Shown: positions 1 to 20,000, counted from the first letter of the stretch. The stretch: DNA of 20,000 nt from Novakomyces olei (GCA_016906335.1 JADEYG010000015.1:1297566-1317565), one strand, 5' to 3'. Translations and numbers: made by a program. Notes: generated by a model from the sequence alone, not told the origin.

Positions 1-25
1 CCGTCAGTATATTCATGCGTATGGC

Positions 26-1450
26 ATGCTAGGCATTAATCAAGCCAGTATTGTCGACGCAAAAGGAAGACCGATACCGCACTCTCCCAAAGATACACGA
101 TTTACCCGCTTTTCTCACGCAAAAGAAATCTCAGTCGGTAATCGTGAAAAATACGGAGACATTTATACAGTCAAGAAAGGCCCATACAAAGAGCTAGTGA
201 TAACAAATCCGGAAGCTTTGCGAGCCCATTATGAGGGCGACGCTATGGCTCACACAAAGCTTGAATCGCTCGGGTTTGGAGCCTTTCTAGGTTCGCTTCT
301 AGGCGAGTGTGTGGGCTTAAAGTATGGAGATGACTGGCGGCGTATCCGTCGTGCTGTCGATCCCTACTTCACGCACAAGGCGGCAATGCTTTCGCTTCCA
401 GCTACGTCTCAATATTTGTTTGAGTGGGCTGGACACGATCTGCCACGCATGAAAGAGGCAAATCACACTGCCCCTGGTCAGTTCAGTATCCGAGCCATGG
501 ACGCAGTTACAATAGTCCCATTCAAAGCTACAGCTAAGCTCATGTACGGTGACAAGACTATGACTGACGAATTTTTCCGGCAGCTGTGGTCCATAATTCC
601 TTTGCACTCGGACCTGATTAATTTTGCTTTTCTCTCGTCTCTCGGTCGCTGGAACCTGTTTCAGTACACGTGTCTGCCAAAAGCTAACCAGCTGCGAAAA
701 TTCCATAGAACGTTTCGTGCCCTCAACATGTGGATGGTGCGCGACGCGCAGGCAAACAATGAAAACAGTATTGTATTTGAAATGTACGAGCAGGTGAAGA
801 GTGGAAAACTGACGTTTGACGAATGGATCCAGACAATTGACGAGATTCTGTTTGCTAATATTGATATCACTGCGGCGGCAATGGCCTGGATGATTATAAT
901 TATTGCCCGTGAACCAGGCTACCAGGACAAGTTGCTTCGCGAGTTCCAGGACAGAATTAGTGACAGCTCGGATGAGAATGAGACGGCACTGTACATCAAG
1001 GACACACAAACAGAGCTCCATCGAGCAATGACAGAGGCAATCAGAGTCCAGCCTGTTGTGTGGTATGGATTTCCTGAGCTCACACAGGCGACAAAAGCCA
1101 TCCAGGGCTATGTCGTTCCCTCTCGCACTCCGGCAACTGTTGACGTGTACCAGCTAAACACGCAGTCTCCCATATGGAATCCAGCAGATAAGCCTAAAGG
1201 CTACGGCAATGTTTTTGATCCAGACCGGTTTATTTCGCTAAACGTTACCGATTATGCCTGGTCCTTTTTCCGCTTTGGTAATGGACCTAGAAAGTGCCTC
1301 GGACGTAACTTTGCTGAATCCCTCCTCAAGGCTGAAATATTCCACGTGTTTTCCCGCTATTCTGTACAGTTGCTAGACAAGGTTGAAATACGTCGCGATA
1401 AATTCACGGCGCAGCCTGAATGCCGTCTACTCTTTACACAGCGTGAGTAG
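26..1450 (+). CDS. Cytochrome P450, GliC/PUL2-like (diketopiperazine-oxidising type); probably 5'-partial
   Basis: Heme motif FGNGPRKCLG, ExxR (EAIR), PDRF, I-helix DEILFANIDITA, and LLGECVGL..GDDWRRIRR resembling GliC-type P450s from recall. The frame is open back to position 2 (RQYIHAYG-M) and there is no N-terminal membrane anchor, so the true start may lie upstream of the window. Confidence 0.9.
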   Translation: MLGINQASIVDAKGRPIPHSPKDTRFTRFSHAKEISVGNREKYGDIYTVKKGPYKELVITNPEALRAHYEGDAMAHTKLESLGFGAFLGSLLGECVGLKYGDDWRRIRRAVDPYFTHKAAMLSLPATSQYLFEWAGHDLPRMKEANHTAPGQFSIRAMDAVTIVPFKATAKLMYGDKTMTDEFFRQLWSIIPLHSDLINFAFLSSLGRWNLFQYTCLPKANQLRKFHRTFRALNMWMVRDAQANNENSIVFEMYEQVKSGKLTFDEWIQTIDEILFANIDITAAAMAWMIIIIAREPGYQDKLLREFQDRISDSSDENETALYIKDTQTELHRAMTEAIRVQPVVWYGFPELTQATKAIQGYVVPSRTPATVDVYQLNTQSPIWNPADKPKGYGNVFDPDRFISLNVTDYAWSFFRFGNGPRKCLGRNFAESLLKAEIFHVFSRYSVQLLDKVEIRRDKFTAQPECRLLFTQRE

Positions 1451-1677
1451 ATCGGTTCGTTATTGGGTCGGTTCAATATTAGGTCCGGCTAGGAGGAGGT
1501 ATTTGGCAAGCGCATTGATTTGCTTTGATTTGAATGATCGAATAAATTGACTTTTTAAAAGGCCTTTTTTAATATAGTATTAAATAATAGCAAATACTAT
1601 GTAATAATCATGATCACTGCTAGAGTAATAAACGCTGGTTTTCAAAACCCCATTTGTGCAAGCAACTCTGCCAGTCT

Positions 1678-3075
1678 TCAAACCTTGGCCGACAATGAGG
1701 GCCCCACCTTGATAATTCTAGCCAGTGTCATAAAGGCAGAGCCAGCCAGAATAACGACGCCAGTGAATATTATCATGCGGGAAAAATCTGTTCCTCTTGT
1801 AAGAGCTCCAGCAATAGGAGAGCCGGTGAGGGCAGCAATGCTGATAATTTGGAAAGAGATGCCAATCCTCTGGCCCAGCACTTGGATAGAGGGACTCAGT
1901 GACGCAATCACTCCAGTCAAAAGGCCGACATAGGCACCTGAAAATATGCCAAACAGCAAACAGAAAACAATGTAGCCGCCTCTGTTGGTTGCACCAAACC
2001 AGGCAAATACAATAATACCCGTAATGACTACGCACGGGATCATCAAGTTTAGTGCTCCGCGTCTGTCGGCAATCATGTTTGGCACAGTCCGGCCGATAAT
2101 GGAGCCGGCATTCGTTATCGGGAGGGAATAAAAAGTAAGAGTCTGTGATATGCCATTGGCTAAGCCAAAAGATTCAAGGAAAAAGAAGGGCGTAAAAAGT
2201 CCCCACATGGTGAGAAAAGCACCACCGACAAAAACCATAAACGGAAGATCTTTGAAAGCACTCGTATCGTACAATAAACTGGCTGGCCGAGGAGGGATAC
2301 GGGTTTTTTGCATAAGGCATGTTCCAGCGAGACACGCAAGAGAGATGAAAGCCACAACTCGCACGGTCCAGCCAAAGCCGATTCGTGGAAACAAACGATT
2401 CAATATGATTGGGAAAACGACGCCGCCAAGAGAGGAACCGGTAGCGACAATACCAAAGCCAATGTAGCGTCTAAGCTTCCACCAGTGGCCTACAACTGCC
2501 ATAGCCGGGAGAAAAATACAGCCCATACCAATGCCCATACAAAGAGACTGAGCGAGGAAGAACTGGTAGTAGCTCTTGCACAGAGAAAGCATAAAAATCC
2601 CAACTAGAAATAGTAAACTGCCTCCCGTAATCAAGTAACGAAAGTAGCCCATGTCAAACAGGTGGCCCGAGAAAATACCACAAAAGAACATTATAAAAAC
2701 TTGCACGGATCCGATCCATGAAATATTGCTCGGCGTTTGATGACTCAGCTGATGGCCCTCATAATAAGTCTGAAACACGCCAAAACAATTGACTATACCA
2801 AACGTACAAAAGAGGCCGAGCCATCCACCGATCACTACGAGCCATGCCTCAAGACCACCGTCGGGAAATGCAAAGTCTGGAGGTCCATTGCCTGCACTTT
2901 TGACTTGCGACTCAAATGACTGATCTTTTCCTTTTCTCTCGGGCGCAGAACCTTCATATCCTTTCTCTTCGTCATTCAAGGAATTCGCGGACACCCGTTG
3001 AGTTTCGTTGAGCTGCTGCTGTCCATCATCATGCGGCCAGCTGTCTGGCAATTGCTGTGCTGTACTGTTTGCCAT
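1678..3075 (-). CDS. MFS transporter, monocarboxylate porter (MCT/Mch-like) family
   Basis: FPDGGLEAWLVVIGG, FGVFQTYY, SNISWIGSVQ, GHLFDMG, GSSLGGVVFP, ADRRG motifs; about 12 hydrophobic segments; intronless 465 aa. Confidence 0.93.
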   Translation of the reverse strand: MANSTAQQLPDSWPHDDGQQQLNETQRVSANSLNDEEKGYEGSAPERKGKDQSFESQVKSAGNGPPDFAFPDGGLEAWLVVIGGWLGLFCTFGIVNCFGVFQTYYEGHQLSHQTPSNISWIGSVQVFIMFFCGIFSGHLFDMGYFRYLITGGSLLFLVGIFMLSLCKSYYQFFLAQSLCMGIGMGCIFLPAMAVVGHWWKLRRYIGFGIVATGSSLGGVVFPIILNRLFPRIGFGWTVRVVAFISLACLAGTCLMQKTRIPPRPASLLYDTSAFKDLPFMVFVGGAFLTMWGLFTPFFFLESFGLANGISQTLTFYSLPITNAGSIIGRTVPNMIADRRGALNLMIPCVVITGIIVFAWFGATNRGGYIVFCLLFGIFSGAYVGLLTGVIASLSPSIQVLGQRIGISFQIISIAALTGSPIAGALTRGTDFSRMIIFTGVVILAGSAFMTLARIIKVGPSLSAKV

Positions 3076-3287
3076 AGCTCGTTATGTTTGGAGCACTTTG
3101 AAAAAGCACATTTTGTACAGAGCGAAAAGGCCTCATCTTTATAGATCTTCCTGTTTATCTGTCAACACTCTTTTCCTTGCTCTTGCGACTCGAAAGTGTC
3201 GATCCAAAAGAAGATTGCACTGCGCATGCTCTCCTTGTCGGAGGTACACCTTGTTCCAGTTCGGAAATAGGTCCAAAAACGTGATAA

Positions 3288-3302
3288 CTCCGTGTTTCGG
3301 AG
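3288..3302. promoter_or_regulatory. Candidate Zn2Cys6 binding site CTCCG-N5-CGGAG in the MFS promoter
   Basis: Perfect inverted pentamers containing everted CCG/CGG triplets about 215 bp upstream of the MFS ATG. A TGATAA lies at 3282-3287 and a TATAAAG on the minus strand at 3143-3137. Confidence 0.35.
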
Positions 3303-3735
3303 AAATGCCTGAAAAGCTGGTTAAGCATGGAACAATAAACTACAGAATATTACTTTCTAATGAATCCAAGTCATTGGATTACTTAAAGTGTAATGCTCCA
3401 TTTTAGGCTAAATTCCTATCAGCTGGACGGTTTATCAAAAAAAAAAGGCAGCTGCTCATCAAGAATAACTAGACTTTAATTAGAGTTTGAAAAGAAGTAA
3501 ATGTAGAGGGGTGCAGAGTTGTTTGCCAATAGTGTGAGGGCACATACGACGATGTCAGCAACTCAGCAACAAGTACTTGGAACGGTTCGGACTATACAAT
3601 GCTGAATAAACAAGGCACAATAAGTTCTTACGTCTACACTTTGAACGATAAGCAGGAAGCACGATACTCGAAAAGGGTCTTACGGTCCAAAACAAGTGCA
3701 ACGAGTATGTGTTCAAATTATAATTGAATTCGTCT

Positions 3736-5526
3736 TTAAAACACAATAGCAGCCCAGTGCATTTGAAAAGAATCTAGCTGAGCAAGAAACGCTTCTAAAT
3801 CCGGATGCATCTGTCCAGAGCTAGGGCTTCCGGCGGATGCAATTTGCTTCGTTTTTACTCTGCGAATCCGCATACAATCATGTGCCCAGCGCTGGCGCTC
3901 AGCGAGAAAGACACCAAGAGCGCCGAGAGTTTCAATAGCGAGATCAATCTCCAGGCCCTCATCGTCAGCTGGCATCTCTGGCGCCTGCAATGATTTGTAG
4001 CTAAAGAGAGCCAAAAGCACCATACAAGCAGCCCATACAGTCATGAGAGCGGATCGAACTGGATAGGCAAAATGCCAATCCAGCTTTTCACGGTGCTCAA
4101 GGGCAAAAGAACGGCCGTATCGCTGCCACAGAGTACGGATCGATCGGCGAGCAAGGCGGTTTGCTATTTGCACCAGCTGTGGGGTCATTTGCGTACCAGG
4201 ATTAGCCAAAATATTACGGAAAAAGAGCAGCTTTGAGCGGACAAGCATAAGCTGCAATTCGTCGTAATGAAATGGCTTCATCTCAACCACATTGTTCTCA
4301 AAGCTAAAGTCAAAAATCATACGCTCGAGCCTCGCCACATCAATGGTTAAATCCAGCTCAGGTCGGCCTAATTTTGCAACATCAGACACTAATTTACAGA
4401 TGCTTATTTTGCCCTGAAGGTAAGCAAACTCATAGTCCTCACGACCACCCAGACTCGGATGGGGCGCGCTTATTTCTTCGGCCATAAGAACAAGTGGCCG
4501 GCCGGAAAAGGCCTTGGTCATGCACGCAGAGGTCCATGAATGCCAAAAATGCCGGCAAATACGCTCGTACATTACTTGATCGTCAATCTGCAGAAAAGTG
4601 CCGATTTTATGATAGCCAAGAGAAATTGCCATACTCATAGACATGAACGAGTACCCTAGTTGAGCTTCAATTGAACAAAATACATTCATAAAATTAGCCA
4701 GTAACGTAATGGCACACAGACCATTCAGAGAAGGTTTCTCCAACGTGTCGGCCACAAGTGATTTTGCTTGAATAAACAGGCTTTGCGCAAATGATCTGCC
4801 ATTCCGCGTTCCTGACGAGTGCTGATCGATATTATTTTCCCACCCGTTTTCCATTAGCGAAGCAAGTATCAGCGCCAGTATAACAAGCAACTTGTTATCT
4901 TGGCCAGTTAAACTGCACGAAAAAGCTGTAGACCACATATCACGGTACACAACCTCAAATTCGCTTTTACTGATGCCGATAAATGGCCTGTTAGCATCGC
5001 GAAATAAAACTTGTACCAATTGATCGCACGTCTGTTTTGCTGGAAGCCCTCCACCATAGTAGTCCGGTGATTGCCTGCGTAAACGCGAAATCTGTTCATT
5101 AGTTTGTCCAAATATATGTTCAAAGCCGACTAAACTTGGCTGAACATTCGAGTCTGAGTTCGAAACTCGCATTTCGTAACTGCCATTTCCACGCGCGTCC
5201 CGAACACGCTCGGTATCGAAGTGTAATCTTTGATTGGAACCAGAAGCCTTGCTACTGTTGCTGCTGCTAGTGGGAATACCTGCACTGTAGCTGCTTTCAG
5301 GAGAAGTTGTCTGCGGCTCTAAATTTCTGTTAAAAAGGATATGTTGTTCATAATCACGAGTATGCAGATTTTTGCGCCGCTTGTCTCGCGAATAATTGCA
5401 TTCAGCAGGAGGTCTCGATTCAGAGCAGCTACGACACACAGGCAGGGCACGATTACACTGGATCTTTTTCGCTCGGCAGCGCTCACACGCTCTTTCAGAA
5501 TAATGGTCCTGGCCTGGATCCATCAT
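3736..5526 (-). CDS. Zn(II)2Cys6 fungal transcription factor with middle homology region
   Basis: CERCRAKKIQCNRALPVCRSCSESRPPAEC binuclear cluster; AISLGYH...ERICRHFW...SGRP fungal TF region. The ORF track starts at a TTG (5547); the first ATG is at 5526. Confidence 0.92.
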   Translation of the reverse strand: MMDPGQDHYSERACERCRAKKIQCNRALPVCRSCSESRPPAECNYSRDKRRKNLHTRDYEQHILFNRNLEPQTTSPESSYSAGIPTSSSNSSKASGSNQRLHFDTERVRDARGNGSYEMRVSNSDSNVQPSLVGFEHIFGQTNEQISRLRRQSPDYYGGGLPAKQTCDQLVQVLFRDANRPFIGISKSEFEVVYRDMWSTAFSCSLTGQDNKLLVILALILASLMENGWENNIDQHSSGTRNGRSFAQSLFIQAKSLVADTLEKPSLNGLCAITLLANFMNVFCSIEAQLGYSFMSMSMAISLGYHKIGTFLQIDDQVMYERICRHFWHSWTSACMTKAFSGRPLVLMAEEISAPHPSLGGREDYEFAYLQGKISICKLVSDVAKLGRPELDLTIDVARLERMIFDFSFENNVVEMKPFHYDELQLMLVRSKLLFFRNILANPGTQMTPQLVQIANRLARRSIRTLWQRYGRSFALEHREKLDWHFAYPVRSALMTVWAACMVLLALFSYKSLQAPEMPADDEGLEIDLAIETLGALGVFLAERQRWAHDCMRIRRVKTKQIASAGSPSSGQMHPDLEAFLAQLDSFQMHWAAIVF

Positions 5527-5720
5527 CACCCATCGAAACTCTTTCAAATAAATCTAACATAAGCCCTGCTGCTGCATTCGAGCCTGTTGCAATTGGGCTC
5601 TCCCAAAACTATTGCAGCTCTTCCTTCATAGTACTAAGCTGACAATCAAGACTTTTTTTGCCCAGCTTTTTCATGGACCATTGTCGCAGGTTTCTCGATT
5701 ATTTACGTATGTGTAGTAAA

Positions 5721-5988: not shown

Positions 5989-6072
5989 TGGAAGGTTAAA
6001 TATTACATCTACTCAGTGATTAGAAGTGAAGTTAAGTTTCTCAATATTAAAAATTATTAAAAATCAAAAAAC

Positions 6073-7452
6073 ATGGCTCAACCAAATGTCACCCCCGTAC
6101 TTGCCAATAGTTTGAGAAATAATACAATAATACTTGGAATAATTCCAATGTTGAAATCGTGGCACGAGTATAGTGAATGGAAATTGAAGATTACAAACAG
6201 ATTGGAATTGCATGGGTTCTCCGCATTATTGGAGAGCGATCAAGACTCCAGTATTCCGAAAGTCACCGTTCTCGTAATAACAGCCGAACTAATCGAGGCA
6301 ATAAACGAAAATCTACTTGGACCCCGCATTGAAGGAATAAAATCGCCGAAAGCACTCTTTAAATTACTCGATTTGGAATTTGGCAAAAAGAAAAATTAAG
6401 TGATTGAAGCTGTCGCCACTAAATTCATGGCTCCCCAGAAATTGTGGGGAGGAGACCCTGAAAAGTTTATGAACGAATACAGAAACATCGTGATCAGTCT
6501 CGTAAGACTAGGATTTACGGAGCTCACGTATTTTACTTATTGTGGAATTTTATCGGCTTTACCCAAAGAAATTGCGGGGAACATTCGCCACAATGTTAGC
6601 TCAAAAATTACTGCTAAATTACAAGTGTTTGATCTTTTGGATCTAGTCTCAAACGAGCTTGCCTTTTACGGAAATGATGAGCTTAATAATGAATACGTCA
6701 ATCTTGTCGATCGATTTGAAAATCCAAAATCGAAAACCAACGACTATTACCAAAAGAGGAATACACTCCCGAATAGGAAATCGGTCAACCCCGCACCCAA
6801 ATGCTCTTTTTGTGGACGAATTGGGCACAGGGCTAATGATTGTTTCAAAAATTTAAAAGGGAAAGGAACAAAACACTGTCAAAACTGTGAAAAGTATGGA
6901 CATACCGACAAAGAATGTCGAAAAAGAAACGACACTGATAATAAAAGCAAATCTCATACAGTCTATATTACGACTGATAAAAATGAGCCTATCTTGTGAC
7001 TAGATAAGAATGTAACTAAAAAATCTACACAGTGGATTTTAGATACAGGCGCCTCTAGTCACATTTGCTTTGATTTAAAATGTTTTTATAATTTAAAAAG
7101 GGTTGATACAAAAATTCAGACAGGAAAAAATACGTACTCTCCAATTAAAGGAGTTGGAACGATTTTTTTAAAAATTAATGACGTTTACAATAATAAATTA
7201 ATTTTATCAAATGTCCTGTACGCCCCAAAATATGGAATAAACTTGTTCAACCCTCTAATATTAAAAGAATTTAATGGAGGAAAAACATTCTCGATATCTG
7301 ACAGAGATAAAGTTATGATGAGCGATAACAAACCACTTATACGTCTGAACAAGGTCAATAACATATACTCATTTAATGCGATATCAATTCAAAAAAAGAA
7401 TGTTCAACAAGCTAATTCCATTTTACAAGATTCTTACGAAACGTGGCATGAA
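6073..7452 (+). pseudogene. Copia gag-protease-(pre-integrase), one frame with internal stops at 6397-6399 (TAA) and 6997-6999 (TGA)
   Basis: ORFs 6073, 6400 and 7243 share a frame. CSFCGRIGHRANDC and CQNCEKYGHTDKEC zinc knuckles. The frame continues after the TGA as LDKNVTKKSTQWILDTGASSHICFD...NVLYAPKYGINLF. Confidence 0.88.
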
Positions 7453-7905
7453 TGTTATAACTGTGGAAATTACTCACTGTTATAACTTTTAGATTAATTA
7501 AATCTACCCTTAAACTATGGAAAACCTTGTCCTTTTATAGACTTCAAGGCTCAGTGTTAGGGAGTCGCTATTTAGGCCGCTATGAACGGTTGATATAGCG
7601 ACGAGTCTTATTCAACTTTCCAGTTTATTACTTTAATTTCTTTTAGTTATTTGTTTAATGTGGCTTAGATAGTTCTAGAATAGTTTTCTCATAGTTTAAC
7701 CACAAGGGTCAAGCTTATAAATAGAGGCTTGTCTTCTACTTGTCCCTTGTGTGAAATCAATTTGGGTTACGCCTATACTTCGCGACTGTAGGCTCCTCAG
7801 TCTCCTTGTTGCAATAGTCACCGACAGTACTCTGGTTCGTCCCATCTTCCTGCCTCCGCCCGCGCGATATCGGGCTAGTCCATCACCCAGGGTCACCCCC
7901 TAACA
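7453..7905 (+). repeat. 5' LTR of gypsy element 1 (453 bp)
   Basis: TGTTA at 7453 and TAACA at 7901-7905; T-rich U3; TATAAATA at 7716-7723; self-primer GTGTGAAAT at 7749-7757. Confidence 0.85.
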
Positions 7906-10123
7906 GTATTTCACACCCGCGACGTGGCACCGAGATGGAAGTCGATCCAAACAACGAGATGTCGGCTACGATTCAACAAATCCTTAGGGATATGAGTTCT
8001 AGAATGCAAAACCTGGAACAGGAAAACCTTCAGTTACGAGGTCATGTGATGGATTTGAGTTCAAGAACCAGTGGACACACTTCGAATTACCGGGAACCAA
8101 AGCTGGCTACACCGCCACTGTACCACGGAGAACGAGCGAAGACCACGGAGTATCTTACGCAAATCAAAATGTACATCGACAGTCAACCGACGAGATTTAC
8201 TACAGAGAGACAACAAGTTATGTTTGCTGCATCCTATTTGAGAGGCTCTGCATTTAGATGGTTTGAACCACATGTGAAGACAGACAACAGTATGATCCTA
8301 GACGACTTTGACGAATATTGTACGCAGTTAGAACGAATGTTCGGAGACCGCAATATTCAGAGAACAGCGCAGAAACAGATACGTGAACTACGACAGAGAC
8401 GATCAGTTGCACAGTATGCTGCAGAATTTAACCGCTTGCGTGCGTGGATCAATTGGAACAATGATCCATTGATATCACAGTTTTACGAAGGGTTAAAAGA
8501 CGAAATGAAAGACGAATTGGCCAGAATGGATGAGCCAAACGACATTGACAAACTCATTGACGAGTGTATTAAAATTGACAACAGACTATCAGAAAGAAAG
8601 GGGAACAACGGTCGTTTCCTAACCCATAGACCGCAACAACCAGTATCGAGAGATAGGGGAGCTGTGCCTATGGACGTCGACATGGTACAAGCTCAGCCCG
8701 CAAAGAATGCCGCTTGGAACGGACATAATAGCGGACAACAGAATATGGTCGCTCAATCAGTCGCTAAGAACAGAGGTTTTAGCGGACACAACACGGAGCC
8801 ATCAGACAAGTATACAAAGGGCCGCATAAACATGCCCAAGATACAGTGCCAACGCTGCCATAAGTTTGGACACTATGCCAAGAATTGCCGAAGCACATTT
8901 CCGGCACGAGATATGACGAGAGAACGTCAAAATAACGCTTTAAGTTTGGAGGAGACGATGGTCTACCAGTCTGAACATGATGAATTCAGTGAGAATGAAG
9001 ACACTATGCCCCAACGAGTGGAGGTAAATGTGAAAATAGGAAATGAGAGTTTTACGGCTTTAGTTGACTCCGGCGCGAGCTCAAGCTTTATGCACTGGAA
9101 GCTAGCAGATAAGTTGAAGATCGAAACTGCTCCATTAAAGAATCCTATTACTGTACGCGTGGCTGACGGGAGAACTATACGTTCACGTCAAGCAATTAAG
9201 CGAACCGACAGTTTGAACCTGAGTATCAATGGATACGAGACGGATACAAGATTTTTAGTTGCCGAGATCGGAACAAATAACATGTTACTGGGAGTAGATT
9301 GGCTAAGAAAGCACAACCCCATAATTAATTGGAAAGAAGGTACTATTGCATGGGAGACGACCAGTAATACCTTCACGGAAACATCAATGAACACCGAATT
9401 TGAACCTCACACTGAGGAAGTAAGTGATTCAACAGACGATGAAAACATAATTACATCTGCCAAAAACGAGGACGTTCTGGAATTGGACATTACAGAAGTT
9501 ACCTCAACTGCAACCAAGATACCAGAAGAGTATCAGGAATTTAAAGATGTATTTGGCGAGCAAGAACAATTGGAACTACCGCCACACCGCTCATACGATC
9601 ACGAAATCGTACTAGAGAAAGATGCCAAGATCCCATTCGGACCAGTTTATGGAACTACACCGAAAGAACAAGACTATCTACTAAAGTACTTGGAAGAAAA
9701 CTTGCAATCAGGATTTATTCGAAAATCTAAAAGTCCAGCTGCATCACCTGTACTATTTGCACCGAAGAAAGACGGTGACCTTAGACTCTGTGTCGACTAC
9801 AGAGCTTTAAACAAAGTTACAGTGAAGAACCGTTATCCTTTGCCGCGCATTGATGGACTTATTGATAAGTTAGCGCAGGCCATCTACTTCACTAAACTAG
9901 ATTTGCGAGGTGCATACAACCTCATCAGAATTAAGAAAGGAGACGAATGGAAAACAGCATTTCGTACTCGCTATGGATTATTTGAATATCGCGTAATGCC
10001 ATTTGGACTTACAAATGCACCAGCGACGTTTCAAAATTTAATGAATGACATATTTCGAGATATATTAGATGTCAAAGTTTTGGTTTATCTAGACGACATT
10101 CTAGTATATAGCAAGACCCTTGA
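7453..10123 (+). mobile_element. Ty3/gypsy (Tf1/sushi-type) LTR retrotransposon 1, 5' part, interrupted in RT
   Basis: LTR TGTTA...TAACA followed by a gag-PR-RT ORF; inserted in the copia pol. Confidence 0.93.
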
Positions 10124-10151
10124 TGTTACGGTGCGCTATATGAGGCGCTAG
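7935..10151 (+). CDS. Gypsy gag-protease-reverse transcriptase polyprotein, truncated (native sequence ends near 10123)
   Basis: Retrotransposon gag ([33 protein letters not shown]), [18 protein letters not shown], protease LVDSGA and [46 protein letters not shown]. The last residues are read from the next LTR. Confidence 0.93.
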
Positions 10152-10515
10152 CTAGCGCTGAAGATAGCGCTTTTACATCCTTTAATTTGTTTTGTTTCAC
10201 TTTATTTTGTGTTACGACTTCTATTTTTAATTAGTTCTATTTATAACTCTTAGCTTCTATTTTTAGATAGCAACTTAGTTAGTTTAATTAGTTTAGTTTG
10301 ATTAGTTTCTCGGGCAAAGCCCCACGGAGCGTCATAAGAATGGGACACTCCCCTCTTATGTTCGCTACGTGTAATCAAATCTTGGTGTGCAATATTTTGG
10401 TTTTCTATTACTAGGTTCCCTACTTTCCACGTATCCTCAACAGAGCCAGCGTGAGATCTGGCATATTCACCTTATTGCACCTTTACGACTTTTTGGAAGT
10501 AAAGCCCCCATAACA
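10124..10515 (+). repeat. 5' LTR of gypsy element 2 (392 bp)
   Basis: Same termini as LTR1 and the same CCCC.TAACA-GTATT junction; self-primer ACGTGTAAT at 10367-10375. Confidence 0.85.
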
Positions 10516-10553
10516 GTATTACACGTCCACGATTCTGATTCGAGGATACAACG

Positions 10554-10930
10554 ATGTCGGCAGCGGATTTTGAGCAGTTGAATAGGTTTCTTGAGCAAAC
10601 CACAGCGCGTTTGGAACGGCTGGAGAAAGAGAACCGCACTCTCGCTGACCAACTCGGTATCGCTAAGGGAACCGTGCAGGAACGAGGGTCGAAGGAGCCT
10701 AAAATGGCACCACCACCATTCTTTTCCGGCGAACGCTCGAAAACTGGTGAATTTTTGACCTGCGTGAGGATGATTATTGGCAGTCAACCAGATCGCTATC
10801 GCTCGGCGCGACAGCAAGTGATGTTTGCGGCGTCTTACCTTCGCGGAGCGGCTTTCAGATGGTTTGAGCCTCATGTGAGAAACGAAAATGAAGTTATTCT
10901 CGACGATTTTGATTGTTTTTGTGACACGCT
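10554..10930 (+). pseudogene. Truncated gypsy gag (ORF runs on into foreign DNA to 11009)
   Basis: EPKMAPPPFFSGERSKT...[23 protein letters not shown]...ILDDFD aligns with the element 1 gag; similarity stops after CDTL near 10930. Confidence 0.88.
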
Positions 10931-11227
10931 CTATACATATTCCTGCGCGAATTACGCCGTAATTCGAAATATATGTATCGTAGTTTTTATTAGCTATATT
11001 TTTTGTTAGGGTGTTCTACGTAGAATTACGGCGTAATTCCAGTTTGAAAATTAATTAATGTATGGGAGGGGGGTCATGTGAATTTGCTGCTCGTCGTCGC
11101 GAATTACGGCGTAATTCTAATAAGAATTGAATAACAAATAGTCAAACAGGGTTTTCGAGGGTAGATTTTACTGCATAATTCCAGGTTAATATATGGTAAA
11201 AATCGCGACGACGGAAAGGAAATTCAC
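10931..11227 (+). repeat. Subtelomeric module copy A: palindrome array plus long inverted repeat, upstream of the TLH gene
   Basis: GAATTACG-N-CGTAATTC at 10949, 11023 and 11101; inverted arms 11078-11102 / 11203-11227; alignable with 16234-16532. Confidence 0.85.
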
Positions 11228-11316
11228 ACTATTAATAATAAGATTCGCATTATATCGAAAATAGATTACAGCATGTTTCTAGTAGTAATTAAAGACTTGA
11301 ACAGATATACTCAGTC

Positions 11317-14300
11317 ATGGAGTACTTGGGAATCGAGGAGGCCTTTGGTTTAAAGGTAGTTGCTTGCAAGGCTTGTCGGGCATGCGTAAAGGTCGAGGTT
11401 GGAACCAACGCAGCCGAAAGGCATTTGCGTCAGGCGCATAAGCTAAAGTCAACTGAACTTCAAATTGCACTTTCTGTAATTAATGCAAACGACGTGAATA
11501 TCGCTCCTGTTTTGAATATATATTGGAGCACGCCGAGCCTGCGTGAAGTGGTTGAACCGTTATTATTTCTAAAGGTTTGCCAAGGCTACTACTGCAGTTT
11601 TTGCTATGATGCTGCTTCAACATCGCGAAAGGTCATTGAGCAGCATATCTCAAAAGAACATACTGTTCGAACATCAAAAGATCATATTGTTTGTTCACCC
11701 CTACAAACTTGTTTTACAGAGAATCAATTTCTGAAATATTTTCGTGTTGCTGCGAAAGATGGTTTAAAACCAAGCTCAAATTCAGCCGCGGAGGGCGTTG
11801 TAGGAAAGTTCTTGGAAAAGACCCTTATAACCCTTCCCAGTGCTGCAACAGAAAGTGATGTCGATCAAAGAGACATTCCACCGTGGGTCACGAAGTTTGG
11901 GTTTGATCGAGTCTGTTTACAAACGGAAAACCTGAGCAATTTCGAATCCACAGTGCTTGACAGTATTGATGAACAAATCGAGCTTTTATATAACAATATA
12001 TTTGATGAAAGCAATATGAAAATGACTTCAGCTATGGCGACTAGACTGAGTAGTTTTGTGCCGGACAATTCTGGACGAGTGCGCCACTTTCGACGAACAA
12101 CTTTACCTGCGACTAAGAAAAGATATTTTTCGTACTGGGCTCAGGCAATTCGATTTTTCATTACTCGACTGATGTTGAACTGTGACGACGCTCAAAGGGC
12201 TAATGTCGAGGGGACTGTACTTGCAATCAAAGCTGGTCTATTTGATACTGCGCGACGGTTTCTTTTTTATATTGGTTTATATCTTTTAAAACAACCAATT
12301 AAAAACAACGATTTTGATTCTGCACTCTTAAGCTTTTGTGCATCATGTGCTTATTTATATCAAGGAGATGCTTCAAAAGGCTGGAAACCGCCTAATGGAT
12401 TTAATACGATATTATCTGGATTGATTTACTGCGCTCAATTAACTTTGTTTGAAGAGGCTTGCTCGCAGCCGGGAGAGGCTAGTTCAAACTTGGACATTTT
12501 AGTTGAGCAGTTTCTCAACCCATCAAGAAGTACTGCGGTTGGAGTTCTTCTTAATTGGAGAGCTTATCTTTTTCAGTATACAAAATATTATGTTAATCCG
12601 CACCAATGTACCTGGGATATTGCAGAGAGAGAAGTCTCTTACAGAGGAAGTTCTCTACGAATGGCCGAAATCACAATTTTATACAAACGCGCAGTTTTGG
12701 CAGCCTACGGAATTTTAAGCGACAGTCTTTTGTTTGGAATCAACTACAAATTTCTTTCGACAAAATCTCTTCGTGATTTAATTCATATTTCACAGCCTGG
12801 CTACTGGTTTGGGATAGCAGCTGAAAACAAACATTATTTAAAAGAACATGAAAACTGGCTCGTTCGTCTATTGCAATCAAATACACGTCTAACAACTTAT
12901 TTTCATAACGGAACAGGAGACTGGGACAAATCAGCCATTGCGCGGTATTTGGCTGCGGTACACACATTTTTGCGATGGATATGGACACTATTAACAATAT
13001 CAGCGCCCCCATTGCGCGGTACGGAAACCATAACTATATGGTTCAGAAATGGAAGGAGAGGGCGAAATATATTATTAAAGATGGACAGATGCTAGTATAT
13101 ACAACCTATACTAAAACACAAAACATTACTGGGCGCCCGCGAGTCCTTGCACGGTTTCTAACTCACGAAGTGGGGAACTTGGTTCTGAATTATTTGATTT
13201 ATATTCAACCGTTTACTGAATACTTACAGGGTGTCCTCGGGAACGCACTATCTCAAACGGCATTATTTGTGTCACATGGAAAGGAATGGGACGGTAAGTG
13301 CCTTTCTCGGTACTTCGAGCAGTCTTGCGCACATGCAAGTGTTCCAACGTTGTCAATATCTGCCTGGCGGCAGATTGCTTCGTCCATTATAAATGTCAAA
13401 TTCTCAAAACACATCGCAGACGTTGAGGACAACAGTGACGATGATGAAGGTCTTACTATGACTCATAATGCTGTCAATTTAATACACCTATCGAATCACA
13501 GTGTCGCAACACACAGTACAATGTACGGAAACAGTAGCGGTTTGAAGAATACGGCTGATCTTTGGCTCAACCATAGTTGGAAGGCGTGTCAGTCATGGGC
13601 GGATTTCTTCAAAATGTCTGAACAATATATTCATGCTACGGACAAGATCGAAAATACTAAAGCAGTACCAGAAGATTTGGAAGTCTCCATTGGTCAACTG
13701 AAAAAGAATGCATTTAGAAAAGCAAAAGAGCTGTTTGGTTCTGATTTTGAATTCCGTGCTGCAATACAGGCGGATGCTATTGTAGCAGTTGCCCGAAAGG
13801 TACAGGAAATAGTTATTGTATTTCCTACTGGGTTTGGAAAGACATGTGTAATCCAGGTTGCAGCTTGCTTGCCGCAAGCTTCATGCACAGTGATGGTTTA
13901 CCATTTGTGGCGTTGATGATTGATGTGGAACGTCGGTCCAAACTAGTGGGGATCGACACTGGAATATGGACCGCGAATGATTCGCCGCAAAAGTTTTATC
14001 GCTTAACCTTGATGTCGGTGGAGACAGCTGTGTCGGACTCGGGACGGCAATATTTAACACTTTTACGCCAAAGAGGAATTCTTGATCGATTGGTAGTCGA
14101 TGAATGCCATTTGGCATTTACTACGTCATACAGAAAGGCAATTCAACAAATACCTAGTTTAAGACTATTGGATGTACCAATAGTGCTCTTGTCGGCAACG
14201 CTTCCTCCGTGCAAAAGGAGCGAATTTATAGACCATTTTGTGCTAGAGAATCCGACTTGGTTTAAAGTACGATGTCGTAGACACAACATTGTTTACAAAG

Positions 14301-15421
14301 CGAGGCAAGCTACTGGAGCACTACAGTCCGAAGTAATAAATACTCTGAAACAATTTGAATTCAAAGATGAAGATGATCGCGTAATGTGTATCGCAAGAAC
14401 AAAGTCAGACGCCGAAACAATTGCTATTGCTAGTCGTGCGCATTGCATAACATCAAAGCTTAGCTTTGCTGAGAAGGCTGGAATAATAAATCGGTGGATA
14501 TTAGGTGAGAAAAGCAAAGTATTAGTTGGAACGACTGCTATTGGAACTGGTGTTGATTTCCAACATGTGAGACTGGTTGTGCATGCCAAAGCGCCTTACA
14601 GTTTGGTAGACTATTTCCAAGAATCAGGACGTGCTGGAAGAGATGGCAGAAGAGCCGAGAGCCTAATCATATTTAGTGAGGATGATCTAAGCACAATGGA
14701 GAAACCATTGAGAAGATATGTACATGAAACAGAGTGCAGGAGATTAGTACTAGACAGATATTTCAACGACTATGATGAAGACTTAGCGCGATGTCAGACG
14801 GACGAGAATCATTGTGACTTATGTCAGATGTCGAAGCGCCGCAAGGTCCGGGCTGAAGCAAACGAGAGGCAGCCCGATTGCCGATATGGTCGACAAGCCG
14901 TGTTACAGAGAGATCGGTCGAACATCATAATTGCTGAAGATATTCACAATTTAATGCTTTATCTTTCAGACAAATGTGTTTTGTGTCTCCTTTCCGGTGC
15001 TAGTCAGTACTCACACGGCTTTGGCCAATGCCGGAACAGGATAAAGTTTTTGTACTTGGACGCCAAAAGAACAGTATTGAAAGCAAATCAGCGAAATTGG
15101 ATAAAATCTGGGAGCGTTTGCTATCGGTGCTACCTACCTCAAACAATATGTCGGACGGCATTTGAGAAAGAGGAACGGCAATGTCAATATTCAGACAAGA
15201 TCATGCCATCGTTATTTACTATATTTGAATTAGCACACGAAAAATTAGAAATGAAAGACAAACTAAAAACCTGGACTGGTGAAGCTTTACCGGCCAAAGG
15301 CACAGCATGCTTATTGTGGGCCGGTCAAATCACAATCGGTCCCACACAAATAGCGGGTGTAAAGTTCGTGCATTGGTATTTCAGCAATGACAGGCCAACC
15401 AAAATGGCGGAACAAAAGTAG
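11317..15421 (+). CDS. Telomere-linked RecQ helicase (TLH-like) with N-terminal C2H2 fingers and a putative tyrosine-recombinase-like domain; two frameshifts (about 13072 and 13898)
   Basis: Joins ORFs 11317-13095, 12975-13916 and 13844-15421. CKAC..HLRQAH and CSFC..HISKEH fingers; Walker A PTGFGKT; VVDECH; LLSATLP; GTGVDF..VRLVVH; YFQESGRAGRDG; RecQ Zn motif CRR..YF..C..CDLC; C-terminal Cys clusters. Adding one T at each shift gives a single 1368-aa protein. Confidence 0.88.
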
Positions 15422-15604
15422 TTTGTTGGATCTAATTTATCTTCATTTATTGTATTAATATGTGATTCAACGTATGCAGGATTCATAGATATAATGGAAA
15501 ATTTATGAATTGAAACCTATTATATGTCGAGTGTGGCATCACGAATTTATTCAACTATAACTATAGTATGGAGAGCAATTTTATAAGTAATGCGCAAGTT
15601 ATGC

Positions 15605-15692
15605 AATAATGTATGGAGGATTATTGTATGGAGTATTATTGTATGAAGATTATTGTATGAGGATTAATAAATGGAGGATTAATGTATGGAGG
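15605..15692 (+). repeat. Short degenerate tandem repeat (about 15-bp unit GTATGGAGGATTATT)
   Basis: About 5-6 imperfect copies; same family as the 17-kb minisatellite. Confidence 0.7.
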
Positions 15693-15773
15693 ACCCTAAT
15701 TCCAAATCATTGGCAATCCATATTGCAGCGAGGGTAGGGTTGCTGAACTTATAAATTATAATTATTATACAAG

Positions 15774-16060
15774 ACGTACATATTCCAGCGCGCATTACGC
15801 CTAGCTATTATTACTAGCGACATTTCGACGAAATGTCAGCTGGTATTATTTTTTTTGTATAATAATTGCATTATGTCTAAAATTCGAGAAAACCCTATCA
15901 CTGATATTTCGGCGAAATGTCGCAAGGCGCTAGTGGATTGCCATATATTAAACTGCGAAAAGTTCCCCTAAAAAAGTTGCGACATTTCGACGAAATATCG
16001 CTGAATACAGCGATGCTATTGGATAATACAGTAGCGCAAGCTGAATATCGACGAAATATT
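15774..16060 (+). repeat. Diverged module copy with GACATTTCG-N-CGAAATGTC palindromes
   Basis: Starts with TACATATTCCAGCGCGCATTACGCC (23/25 identical to 10934-10958); palindromes at 15819-15837, 15903-15921, 15981-15999 and a degenerate one at 16044-16060. Confidence 0.8.
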
Positions 16061-16232: not shown

Positions 16233-17004
16233 ACTAGATATATTCAAGACGGAATTATGGCGAAATTCCATTTTTATGTAATGCGATTCTTATTATGTAT
16301 AATTCTAGTCAGGGTTTTCGCTTTTCCTTTACGCCATAATTCCATTTCGAAAAATAATTAATGTATGAGGGGGGGGTCATGCCAATTTCCTTAGCATTCC
16401 CGCGAATTATGGCGTAATTCTAATAAGAATGGTAGGAGAAACGTGGAGGCAGGGTTTTTTAGGGAGAATTTTCCGACTAAATTCCAAATTATAATATGGG
16501 AAATTGCGCGGGAATGCTAAGGAAATTGGCATAAACGGGGGTAAGAACGACGTAAGAGCAAAAATAGTTTCCGCCTTAATTCCAAAACATTGGCAAACCA
16601 TATTGCGGCGAGGGTAGGGTTGCTGAATTTATAAAATATAATTATTATACAAGATGGTCTACACATATTATAGCTATCTGATAATATAATAAAATATTAT
16701 AGAGAGAGCCCCATAGTAATAAAGTATAATAAGAAAAACGTCAGAAAAATAAGAAAAATTAAGAGTGTGTAGTCCATGTGTAGAGGTGACAAAACGTCGA
16801 ATGAACAAGTGTTTTTACAAAAAGTGTATGGTTGGATAGAGGGGTGCAGTAGGAGTGTAAATATATACTTGTTTACAAGATTGGATTAGTAATTATGGAA
16901 ATATATGGGTTTAAAGATTTATAAAAAGCTCATGACGGCGCAGGATGCATTTTATGTGGCATTATAATAATGTATAGTAGAATAATTTATTGTAAAGCAA
17001 TGTA
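16233..17004 (+). repeat. Subtelomeric long repeat copy B (near-identical to 19229-20000)
   Basis: Direct repeat at an offset of about 2995-2996 bp with only a few differences; identical spurious ORFs at 16407 and 19402. Confidence 0.95.
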
Positions 17005-17600
17005 TGTATAATAATGTATAGTATAATAATGTATGGTAATTTAATGTATAGGAATAATGTATGTATAATAATGTATGGTATAATAATGTATGGTATAATA
17101 ATATATGGTAGAATAATGTATTGTAAAGTTATTGTAAAGTAATGTATGTATAATAATGTATGGAGGAATAATGTATGGAGGAATAATGTATGTATAATAA
17201 TGTGTGGTATAATAATATATGGTAAAATAATGTATTGTAAAGTGAATAATGTATGTATAATAATGTATGGTATAATAATGTATTGTAAAGTAAAGTATGT
17301 ATAATAATGTATGGTAAATAATATATGGTAGAATAATGTATTGTAAAGTTATTGTAAAGTAATGTATGTATAATAATATATGGTAGAATCATATGGTATA
17401 ATAATATATGGCATTATAATGTATGGTATAATAATATATGGTGGAATAATGTATGGAGGAATAATGTATGTATAATAATGTATGGTATAATAATATATGG
17501 GGGATTAATGTATGGGAATAATGTATGGGGAATTAATGTATGGGGGATTAATGTATGGAGAATAATGTGTATGGGGGAATAATGTATGGGGGAATAATGT
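16961..17600 (+). repeat. AT-rich minisatellite, 13-15 bp unit TAATAATGTATGG(TA)
   Basis: Dozens of imperfect tandem copies, drifting to the G-richer variant GGGGAATAATGTAT at the 3' end. Confidence 0.92.
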
Positions 17601-17614
17601 ACGGTGATATTTAT

Positions 17615-18390
17615 TTAGGGTTAGGGTTATTTATGATCGAATGGAGTAGAGAATTATATTGAGATTGTTGGATATGAAAGGGAGGGAGAGAGTTGGAGTT
17701 GAGATAGGAAGTAAAGGGAAATAGAAAATGGGAATAGAGTAATGTAGAAGTTGCCAAAAAAATGTTTGATAAAGGACAGTTATTGAAAGGAAGATTGTTT
17801 TAATATTATTTAGTATTTTATAATATTTGGTTAAAGTTTAGAAAGGATCAAATAAAAATGATGATGTAAAAGTTTTAAAAGGGCGGAAAATGTGAATAAT
17901 AATAGATTGAAGGGGTGTGAGGGGATGTGGAAAAGTGATGGGAGATGAAGAAAGAAAGATTTTGGAAGAGTTGAGGGAAGCAGATGGAAGTTGATGGAGT
18001 TAGGAGGTAGGGCTATGGTTAAAGTGAGAAGAATTAGGGTTATTTAGTTCTAAGTGTATGAATGTTAGGGTTAGTAATTTATTATAAGAGAATGATAGCA
18101 TGTTGGGGGAAGAAGTTTATAAAATAGAGAATGGTAATGGGGGTTAGGGTTATGGAGGAATAATGTTTGGTAAAATGATGTATGGGGATTAATGTATGGG
18201 GGAATAATGTATGTAGGAATGTATATGGTATAAATATAAGTATTTATTAAGCATGGAGACTAATATAAATATATTCAAAAAATATATATTCAAGACGAAG
18301 CTATTGCGAAATTTCATTTATGTGTAATGTAATTCTTAGTCTGGGTTAGGGTTAGTCAGGGGGTAGTCAGGGGTTAGTTAGGGTTAGTTA
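17615..18390 (+). repeat. G-rich, C-poor tract with interspersed telomere-like TTAGGG and variants
   Basis: TTAGGGTTAGGG at 17615-17626; single copies near 18034, 18064 and 18144; cluster GGGTTAGGGTTAGTCAGGGGGTAGTCAGGGGTTAGTTAGGGTTAG at about 18343-18387. Confidence 0.7.
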
Positions 18391-18613
18391 CTAATGGTGA
18401 AATTTAGGTAGGGTTGGGCAAAAACTTAGGGAAAATTTTTCGAGGTAGGAAATTTGAGATGCGATTCTTATGCGGAAGCTTTGTATGGAGGTTGCTACGC
18501 GTCCAGTTATTTGTTGTGTAGACAAACAATGAGCGTTGCTATAAACAATGGTTTCCTTGGCAACGTATTGCTTATAGCTTGACGAAGACGCATCGTAAGC
18601 ACCATTGACGGCA

Positions 18614-19010
18614 AGGGTAGGGTTGTTGGATTTATAAATATAATTATTATACAATATGGGCTGCACATATTATAGTTATCTGATAATATAATATAAATAT
18701 TATAGAGAGAGCACCATAGTAATAGAGTATAATAAGAAATACGTCAGAAAAATAAGAAAAATTAAGAGTGTGTAGTCCATGTGTAGAGGTGACAAAACAT
18801 CGAAAGAACAAGCGTTTTTACAAAAAGTGTATGGTTGGATAGAGGGGAGCAGTAGGAGTGTAAATATATATTTGTTTACAAGATTGGATTAGTAGGTATA
18901 AAGATATAGGGCTTTAAAGATTCATAAAAAGCTCATGATGCCCCAGGATGTATTTTATGGGTCGTGTCTATTGTAATAATTTATTGTAAAGTAATGTATG
19001 TATAATAATC
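18614..19010 (+). repeat. Diverged copy of the 3' half of the long repeat (homologous to about 16611-17010)
   Basis: AGGGTAGGGTTG...CTGATAATATA...GAGAGAGCACCATAG...GTCAGAAAAATAAG...GTCCATGTGTAGAGGTGAC...AAAAAGCTCATGA, all collinear. Confidence 0.9.
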
Positions 19011-19052: not shown

Positions 19053-19230
19053 TGTTAGGGGGTGACTCAATACAAAGTAATCTTAAGTCGGCCAAGATCA
19101 CACGTTGGCCTTGACAGGGAATAGCAAAAGGATAGGCAGATAGAAGAACTAATCTCAAGACACTTATATTAAGCGGAACCTTGGTTGTTGTAACGCCCCG
19201 AACCCAGTAGAAGAACTCCTCTTCTTATAC
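19053..19230 (-). mobile_element. Partial gypsy LTR (TATA to U5 end), related to LTR1, inverted
   Basis: 19053-19066 is the exact reverse complement of LTR1 end GTCACCCCCTAACA (7892-7905). The minus strand TATAAGAAGAGGAGTTCTTCTACT resembles LTR1 TATAAATAGAGGCTTGTCTTCTACT. Confidence 0.72.
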
Positions 19231-20000
19231 TAGATATATTCAAACCGGAATTATGGCGAAATTCCATTTTTATGTAATGTGATTCTTATTATGTATAATT
19301 CTAGTCAGGGTTTTCGCTTTTCCTTTACGCCATAATTCCATTTCGAAAAATAATTAATGTATGAGGGGGGGTCATGCCAATTTCCTTAGCATTCCCGCGA
19401 ATTATGGCGTAATTCTAATAAGAATGGTAGGAGAAACGTGGAGGCAGGGTTTTTTAGGGAGAATTTTCCGACTAAATTCCAAATTATAATATGGGAAATT
19501 GCGCGGGAATGCTAAGGAAATTGGCATAAACGGGGGTAAGAACGACGTAAGAGCAAAAATAGTTTCCGCCTTAATTCCAAAACATTGGCAAACCATATTG
19601 CGGCGAGGGTAGGGTTGCTGAATTTATAAAATATAATTATTATACAAGATGGTCTACACATATTATAGCTATCTGATAATATAATAAAAATATTATAGAG
19701 AGAGCCCCATAGTAATAAAGTATAATAAGAAAAACGTCAGAAAAATAAGAAAAATTAAGAGTGTGTAGTCCATGTGTAGAGGTGACAAAACGTCGAATGA
19801 ACAAGTGTTTTTACAAAAAGTGTATGGTTGGATAGAGGGGTGCAGTAGGAGTGTAAATATATACTTGTTTACAAGATTGGATTAGTAATTATGGAGATAT
19901 ATGGGTTTAAAGATTTATAAAAAGCTCATGACGGCGCAGGATGCATTTTATGTGGCATTATAATAATGTATAGTAGAATAATTTATTGTAAAGCAATGTA
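19229..20000 (+). repeat. Subtelomeric long repeat copy C (runs off the window)
   Basis: Near-identical to 16233-17004. Confidence 0.95.

Follow-up and report, generated by a model that had tools for sequence, protein, structure and literature searches.

Why should one perfect palindrome stand three times over before a telomere-linked helicase (TLH) gene? The question is raised by a 20,000-nucleotide stretch of Novakomyces olei DNA (GCA_016906335.1 JADEYG010000015.1:1297566-1317565), referred to here as the window. TLH genes are found at the chromosome ends of many fungi, and neither their role nor the way they spread is known. We tentatively read the palindromes upstream of the window's TLH gene (array A) as phased sites for a dimeric, sequence-specific DNA-binding protein, the TLH protein itself being the likeliest candidate binder. 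The analysis covered this one 20-kb window, in which array A and the related units B and C form two independent lineages and a further array, D, stands beside them, together with contigs of two other runs. Both runs are represented by short-read contigs; run X3 carries the same organism label and run X2 another one.

Array A consists of three palindromes, recovered by a palindrome census and a pattern search and listed without strand: A1 (GAATTACG-C-CGTAATTC, 10949..10965), A2 (GAATTACG-G-CGTAATTC, 11023..11039) and A3 (GAATTACG-G-CGTAATTC, 11101..11117). Each is perfect and 17 nt long (9-1-9 for A1 if the flanking C/G is counted), and the three differ in their central base alone (C, G, G). 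The search and the shuffles confirm what the original prediction had reported, namely perfect palindromes centred at 10957, 11031 and 11109 with spacings of 74 and 78. Allowing up to 3 mismatches, the A pattern has 7 matches in the window against 0.14 expected, a count that 0 of 200 dinucleotide shuffles reached. Only six places in the 20 kb (4880, 10948, 11023, 11101, 15819 and 18687) hold a perfect palindrome whose arms reach 8 or more and whose loop is 0-3; four of the six belong to arrays A and D, and the one at 18687 is AT-only. Contigs of both X2 and X3 cover array A, and no letter is listed as different in them, which excludes an assembly artefact.

The array is more than a decayed tandem repeat, since it has no ~75-nt period, its spacers are unrelated, its sites are identical and perfect, and these sites are better conserved than the DNA around them. 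Tandem Repeats Finder reported neither a ~75-bp period nor an array at the module, and the six spacer pairs within A, like the six within D, score as shuffles do (z -1.2 to 1.8). A simple tandem repeat was rejected on these two grounds, and a 152-bp internal duplication was supported neither by Tandem Repeats Finder nor by the spacer comparisons. In the alignment of A with B, 42 of the 51 site columns are identical, as against 193 of 304 elsewhere (Fisher p = 0.01). These comparisons support the view that the palindromes behave like selected sites, only the palindromes being kept within the arrays.

A second array, absent from the original prediction, lies directly downstream of the TLH unit. 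Array D (15819-16060) is built on the half-site ACATTTCG-N-CGAAATGT, unlike the GAATTACG-N-CGTAATTC of the A type. It opens with D1 (GACATTTCG-A-CGAAATGTC, 15819..15837), a perfect 9-1-9 palindrome from the census, and continues with D2 (GATATTTCG-G-CGAAATGTC, 15903..15921) and D3 (GACATTTCG-A-CGAAATATC, 15981..15999), each with 8 of 9 pairs and each recovered by a search for CG-N-CG palindromes; a degenerate D4 (GAATATCG-A-CGAAATATT, 16043..16060) was recognised by sequence inspection and an inverted-repeat search. None of these is assigned a strand. The centres lie at 15828, 15912, 15990 and, for the degenerate site, 16051, giving spacings of 84, 78 and 61. Since its half-site differs from that of A while its spacing (84, 78) is similar, array D provides independent support. 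In helical turns, spacings of 74, 78 and 84 amount to 7.05, 7.43 and 8.0. Palindromes with a CG-N-CG core and at most 2 mismatched pairs number nine in the window (shuffle mean 1.37, maximum 6 in 300 shuffles), and six of the nine are A1-A3 and D1-D3. The core common to both types, ATT[AT]CG-N-CG[AT]AAT, occurs six times in the window, always in arrays A and D. The D-type letters stand on both arms, all six half-sites of D1-D3 having changed symmetrically, so that symmetry was kept while the sequence changed. The claim of phased sites for a dimeric protein thus stands as far as selected-site behaviour goes, on the unrelated spacers, the better-kept site columns and array D, and the module is a real, non-random cis element that probably has a function.

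The same observations bear on a neutral origin, in which the palindromes would be relics of an old tandem or mosaic repeat, perfected by template switching (quasi-palindrome correction) and gene conversion. Subtelomeres are frequently converting mosaics, the window holds many shuffled modules, the sites of B and C have decayed, and the arms of inverted repeats can homogenise without selection. Such correction, however, perfects single palindromes and does not equalise three sites while their spacers lose similarity. As the sites are also better conserved than their flanks, and D repeats the architecture in a different sequence, we consider a neutral relic distinctly improbable.

Units B and C show how far the array has been inherited. 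Unit B (16233..16654, + strand), delimited by repeat families and alignment, is 0.42 kb long and gene-less, and joins a left module homologous to A to an 81-nt right-end block. Unit C (19229..19649, +), identified by repeat families and the pattern search, is a near-identical duplicate (98-100% identity), so that B and C count as one witness. Their sites lie at 16252-16268, 16326-16342 and 16404-16420 in B and at 19248-19264, 19322-19338 and 19399-19415 in C, with 2, 4 and 1 mismatches to the A pattern in both units. The variants announced for these copies were thus recovered at sites 1 and 3 (1-2 mismatches); site 2, with 4, is weak, failed the search at up to 3 mismatches and was counted by eye. 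B is homologous to A and collinear with it, agreeing in 235 of 355 aligned columns (66%), and the 74/78 spacing that A, B and C share is therefore inherited and is no independent evidence of constraint. The equality of spacing that had been noted in the three copies holds; the constraint read into it gives way, for the most part, to common descent. The differences between A and B comprise 48 transitions and 72 transversions, proportions on which decay by repeat-induced point mutation was rejected, and indicate an old divergence in place of mutation of that type. By their sequence, B and C look like short, internally deleted units that keep both ends. A partial copy, E (18277..18343, +), found as a repeat family member and aligned, covers the opening 67 nt of a B-type module, where degenerate telomere repeats truncate it.

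The left, centromere-proximal terminus of the TLH repeat unit (10930..10948, +) is where similarity among the five copies begins. In their alignment (A, D, B, C, E) the upstream flanks are unrelated, and similarity sets in with (T)A(C/G/T)ATATTC, palindrome 1 following 16-19 nt later. The X3 contig matches from exactly 10930 and runs before that point into different DNA, which, translated, looks like a retroelement integrase motif. In the window the left neighbour is a gag fragment, and other contigs continue that fragment differently from 10931. Because the boundary meets several different neighbours, 10930 is a discrete unit end. Unit A has a sharp left boundary and measures 4.8 kb. Its right end is marked by an 81-nt block (15694..15774, +; a repeat family of 93% identity) that contains GGGTAGGGTT and ends in TATACAAGA; copies start at 15694, 16574 and 19569, that is, after the TLH gene and after arrays B and C. 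The start of this block resembles the right half of A1 in direct orientation (12 of 14 nt), which is not significant (p 0.06). In run X2 the summed contig depth reaches 24-29 thousand over the palindrome module (bins 10922-11269) and 3.8-4.7 thousand over 13010-15600; depth does not equal copy number, and these figures hint that the module is several-fold more abundant than the TLH gene.

A1-A3 lie 19-187 bp inside the left boundary and 200-368 bp upstream of the TLH ATG. From 10930 the module runs through A1, a spacer with the telomere-like motif TTAGGGT (11006..11012, +; motif search), A2, a spacer holding one unit of a 15-nt minisatellite plus a G run, A3 and a conserved block, to the ATG; telomere-like GGGTAG motifs are interleaved with it as well. 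The conserved block of A (11147..11181, +), made of CAGGGTTTTCGAGGGTA and GATTTTACTGCATAATTC, is shared with B/C and, reversed, with D. Its GATTTTACTGCATAATTC part (11164-11181) ends about 134-136 nt before the TLH ATG. It is this motif that had been taken for a degenerate fourth palindrome near 11173: the motif is there, and is better described as a separate conserved element than as a decayed site. Of the 14 TTAGGG hexamers on the + strand, 12 lie at or beyond 11006, and from this rightward concentration we place the telomere to the right, with TLH transcribed towards it. Together with the Pfam domains of the neighbouring gene, this distribution bears out the proposed setting, a subtelomere adjoining a TLH gene.

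The block around A3 is also enclosed by an inverted repeat, whose left arm (11077..11105, +) came from an inverted-repeat search and whose right arm (11200..11228, +) came from that search and from folding; A3 and the GATTTTACTGCATAATTC motif lie between the two. In copy A the arms are 29 nt long and 83% complementary. Copy B has a perfect 26-nt repeat (16379-16404 / 16507-16532), and the equivalent in C, within 19374-19527, is perfect too. Could the module then be a structural or replication element, acting through cruciform or hairpin extrusion, as an origin like the autonomously replicating sequence of the yeast Y' element, as a loading point for RecQ, or as a hairpin for small-RNA silencing? 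Pairing of the arms survives 6 mirrored changes separating A from B, where about 1 is expected (binomial P 4e-4 to 1e-3), with 17 pairs unchanged and 8 unpaired in one copy, and as single strands the segments fold better than any of 200 shuffles (A z -4.60, B z -6.24). Against this, palindromes with 8-9-bp arms around one base are too short for stable extrusion, a one-base loop being impossible, and the three A sites are identical in sequence, which goes beyond symmetry. No origin or transcript evidence was found, and the Rfam search returned two hairpin matches far below threshold (29 bits against a gathering score of 139), resembling a microRNA precursor and lying on the B and C copies. Over 10400-15600, two RNA read sets bearing the same species label gave 0 reads, a blank that carries no weight. 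We regard this explanation of the palindromes as extremely doubtful.

If the sites serve a protein, the gene next to them becomes of interest. The TLH gene (11317..15421, +; Pfam, open reading frames [ORFs] and alignments) would encode two C2H2-like fingers (OrsD), a tyrosine-recombinase-like 'TLH domain' and a RecQ helicase. Its reading frame is in three pieces in the window. At two places short-read contigs have one T more than the window, after 13071 (X2 and X3) and after 13896 (X2), which would rejoin the pieces; the two frameshifts are thus probably homopolymer assembly errors and no sign of a pseudogene, and the gene is probably intact, with about 1369 codons. OrsD (PF12013) is matched at residues 12-115 (E 7.4e-7), where two CxxC...HxxxxH motifs are visible, and the C-terminal half matches Helicase_C (E 3.4e-15), RecQ_Zn_bind and DEAD in Pfam. 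N-terminal zinc-finger motifs of the C2H2 type are listed among the features of TLH proteins, and the stretch between fingers and helicase is named the 'TLH domain', in the available part of a recent description of the family (10.1101/2024.02.27.582403). By its sequence, the gene of the window is a member of this family, with zinc fingers, TLH domain, RecQ helicase and subtelomeric position. A phmmer search with the window ORF returned 395 proteins at E <= 0.001, 63 of them at <= 1e-10.

The original prediction had called the neighbour a tyrosine recombinase-RecQ protein, and this description holds at the level of predicted fold and motifs. The TLH domain itself has no Pfam family, no recombinase family was matched at E <= 5 in four homologues or in the window ORF, and a profile search of PDB sequences matched the RecQ part alone. 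The domain carries the conserved motifs PLRxxE, YHK, WRQ and NHxxxTxxxxY. A predicted model of the homologue P0023 (434 aa, from a 67-row alignment) reached a predicted local distance difference test score (pLDDT) of 83.7 and a predicted template modelling score (pTM) of 0.79, and in a Foldseek search with it the top ten rows were all Xer recombinases, with weak E values of 0.017-0.19. The residues proposed for catalysis are conserved (R in 38/43, K in 53/58, R in 64/65, H in 55/62 and Y in 56/60 of the alignment rows covering each column); they follow the expected order, and the window's own ORFs have all of them. Look-alikes in the ESM Atlas, at 0.84-0.86, belong to integrase, NDC10_II and protelomerase clusters; all score below 0.9 and are leads only. 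The model supports assigning to the TLH domain the catalytic-domain fold of tyrosine recombinases and type IB topoisomerases. In the full-text literature we found no paper tying TLH genes or their domain to recombinases or integrases, subscription journals lying outside this coverage.

The TLH protein is the best candidate binder because the sites behave as selected, within 190 nt of a discrete end and on the promoter side of the element; because the adjacent gene encodes zinc fingers and, as predicted, a recombinase-type DNA-binding fold; and because the gene-less units B and C keep the module. In addition, the concerted, symmetric difference between the A and D sites would point to matched pairs of site and protein, and hence to an element-encoded binder over a single host factor. 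We give somewhat less than an even chance to the reading of the palindromes as phased dimer sites with TLH as their likeliest binder; protein binding, TLH as the binder and the effect of binding are all things that we infer from the sequence. The protein would bind through its N-terminal zinc fingers and the tyrosine-recombinase-like domain, and two or more TLH dimers would load on the palindromes, marking the inner, proximal end of the unit. Sitting on TLH's own promoter, these dimers could feed back on TLH transcription. The palindromes might act as accessory sites, of the arm type or like subterminal repeats, and, once bound, might assist in copying the unit or in joining it to other chromosome ends.

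Several points weigh against assigning the sites to TLH. The identity of the binder rests on adjacency plus the difference between A and D, and this difference could have come from homogenisation within each array if the binder reads the shared ATT-CG-N-CG-AAT core alone. The Foldseek match, taken by itself, is weak (best E 0.017, none <= 0.001). The sites of B and C are damaged (2, 4 and 1 mismatches), hence sites are not maintained everywhere, and arrays B, C and D have no gene downstream. Terminal inverted repeats were not found: when left ends were compared with reverse-complemented right ends, unit A gave z -0.9 and unit B 0.5.

The position of the array, about 134-368 bp upstream of the TLH ATG when the GATTTTACTGCATAATTC motif is included, also suits another binder. 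A homodimeric transcription or chromatin factor of the host might bind the palindromes, in which case the module would be the TLH promoter or upstream activating sequence, a silencer or a boundary, in the manner of the Tbf1 and Reb1 sites of the yeast X and Y' elements. The interleaving with TTAGGGT and GGGTAG fits this explanation, and the HAR-CDEF block of Magnaporthe oryzae was likened to yeast X elements, with a silencing role suggested by the authors, in the available text of that study (PMC1635262). Two arrays with different half-sites, each changed in concert, would be unexpected for one conserved factor, however, and array D keeps near-perfect symmetry despite having no gene downstream. 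We know of no fungal factor with this site: Zn2Cys6 regulators with their CGG pairs, bZIP proteins, homeodomains, Reb1, Abf1 and Mcm1 do not fit both the A and the D type. A host factor appears somewhat unlikely, and well worth keeping in view.

The predicted fold of the TLH domain raises a further alternative, in which the recombinase-like domain would use the palindromes themselves as its cleavage or crossover cores. The 1-nt centre had been held to tell against this. The argument is weaker than stated, as a 5-7-5 reading of each site, with an overlap of 7 nt (ACGNCGT), is also available, and at such cores the enzyme might recombine, invert, integrate or resolve DNA, like Xer at dif or, more boldly, telomere resolvases on palindromes. 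Residues of the catalytic type are conserved, the sole asymmetric base is the central one, which varies among the sites (C, G, G), and the protelomerase cluster stands among the language-model look-alikes (0.84, a lead only). The first 25 nt of unit D (15777..15801, +) repeat the left terminus of A, with 2 mismatches in the alignment, and resemblance to A ends precisely where palindrome 1 has its centre; by alignment, this stretch is a rearrangement breakpoint at a palindrome centre. Given 4 centres in 350 bp, a break would fall no more than 1 nt from one of them with a chance of ~0.03. With the palindromes masked, the rest of D shows local similarity to A alike in both orientations (z 6.5 and 6.6).

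On the other side, the arms would be just 5-8 nt, and the binding arms of Cre, Flp and Xer measure 11-13 nt. Three or four like sites 74-84 bp apart would delete or invert one another, and the D junction, a single one, recreates no hybrid palindrome. Set against a core site of two ~9-13-bp inverted elements around an asymmetric 6-8-bp overlap, the palindromes have arms of 8-9 nt and a 1-nt centre, and in the 5-7-5 reading the overlap is symmetric except for its middle base. Crossover cores, whether in general or in the 5-7-5 form, seem to us very unlikely, and accessory docking of TLH dimers remains our tentative preference.

A bolder reading would make the TLH units a so far unrecognised self-propagating element of chromosome ends, whose protein combines zinc fingers, an active tyrosine recombinase and RecQ. 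The arrays would then be recognition, and possibly cleavage, sites of the recombinase, the break in D an enzyme footprint, B and C non-autonomous derivatives, and the subfamilies would have matched pairs of site and protein. On the sequence at hand we hold this to be rather unlikely.

The 'TLH domain' has so far been treated as a domain of unknown role, and the recombinase fold predicted for the neighbouring protein raises the interest of the module. Were the domain a working recombinase and the palindromes its docking sites, the spread of the units would be partly enzyme-driven and site-specific, beyond passive recombination, and the function of the Magnaporthe helicase-associated repeats could be tested with simple probes. 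If a host factor binds instead, the sites offer a compact handle on subtelomeric gene switching or insulation.

These Magnaporthe repeats invite the closest comparison. As the available part of the report describes it (PMC1635262), the helicase-associated repeat (HAR) block HAR-CDEF of M. oryzae ends 181 bp before the TLH ATG, has telomere-like motifs and supplies the subtelomere's sharp 'near' boundary; within a truncation-resistant core of HAR-D lies a conserved, imperfect palindrome of 23 bp, and the function of HARs is not known. By our own reading of the printed consensus, the HAR-D palindrome is odd as well, 11-1-11 with one mismatched pair. Like HAR-CDEF as portrayed there, the window's module is a compound block just upstream of TLH, its last palindrome ending 200 bp from the ATG, and it shares a proximal boundary (here at 10930), telomere-like motifs and palindrome content. 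It differs in showing no sequence similarity to the published block, in having 3-4 shorter, perfect palindromes 74-84 bp apart with unrelated spacers where the other has tandem units, and in adding a second array type and a covarying inverted repeat. By analogy with what that report gives, HAR-CDEF is the closest published analogue, and the array of the window would be a new variant of helicase-associated repeats known from one other fungus. The same source (PMC1635262), in its available part, permits a comparison with the yeast X elements, their subtelomeric repeats (STR) and Y', which likewise present a helicase-encoding unit at the chromosome end, short proximal protein-binding or telomere-like motifs, and interstitial telomere tracts. 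The yeast sites serve host factors and are not arrayed palindromes. To our knowledge, the yeast Y' helicase has no recombinase-like domain.

The arrangement is also reminiscent of the subterminal repeats of En/Spm, Ac/Ds and Mutator and of the arm-type sites of lambda integrase, where several copies of a short motif near the end of an element are bound by the element's own protein. The window similarly has several motif copies within ~250 bp of the end, on the promoter side of the element's gene; short gene-less derivatives keep the ends, and the A and D motif types parallel subfamily differences. Unlike cut-and-paste transposons with subterminal repeats, the window has no terminal inverted repeats, on which ground a classical transposon end of this kind was rejected, and its sites are palindromic. 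Among eukaryotic tyrosine-recombinase DNA elements, Cryptons and the 'captain' elements of Starships likewise have a gene of recombinase fold at one end of a unit devoid of terminal inverted repeats; the TLH protein differs in that it has no Pfam match to their recombinase families, is fused to RecQ and is strictly subtelomeric. In Fusarium oxysporum, TLH units are regarded as discrete repeated regions of 4.3-7.3 kb (PMC12857005), and in Botrytis cinerea TLH genes occur in some strains only (10.1101/2022.03.07.483234), as stated in the accessible parts of the two reports.

The suggestion that the palindromes are origin iterons was not upheld. The likeness lies in a repeated 17-19-bp motif adjoining a gene whose product might bind it. 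Iterons are direct repeats of ~22 bp, near helical phase, beside an AT-rich unwinding region and a Rep gene. The sites of the window, unlike these, are palindromes 74-84 bp apart, and neither a replication gene (Rep or another match to an initiator family) nor evidence of an origin was found there. A metagenome search for paired sites 52-78 nt apart returned 11 loci, none with full GAATTACG arms or a fungal look, and no relative came to light; their GC content ranges from 0.27 to 0.71, and several have closely spaced repeats of prokaryote type. Three loci on unrelated metagenome contigs (L002, L004 and L007, about 6001-6101) hold five ATTACGNCGTAAT-like palindromes ~22 nt apart within 100 nt. 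There a motif of similar kind does form a true iteron- or operator-like array, in DNA that is probably prokaryotic or from a phage.

From 15421 to its end, the window is a mosaic of short repeated modules, minisatellite and telomere-like tracts. Tandem Repeats Finder counted 43.9 copies of the 15-nt minisatellite unit at 16966-17605; AATAATGTATGGNNG-like units also occur at 15607-15693 and 18151-18220, and at 11050-11072. This last one lies between palindromes 2 and 3, as a unit does in the B module, and is among the best-conserved stretches between A and B. Truncated units capped by degenerate telomere repeats (GGGTTAGGGTTAGTCAGGG...) are seen at 18277-18395, where copy E breaks off after 67 nt, and in run X2 at 11416, where a TLH copy ends 100 nt inside its ORF and passes into similar repeats. 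We take such capped units as signs of repeated breakage, healing and re-extension of the chromosome end.

To the left of the TLH unit, positions 6400-10930 hold fragments of Ty3/gypsy-type retroelements (gag, protease and reverse transcriptase in Pfam). Beyond them, at 1-5547, genes for a P450, a major facilitator superfamily transporter and a Zn2Cys6 regulator stand side by side. This gene set resembles the edge of a secondary-metabolite cluster, which retroelement debris alone would part from the subtelomere.

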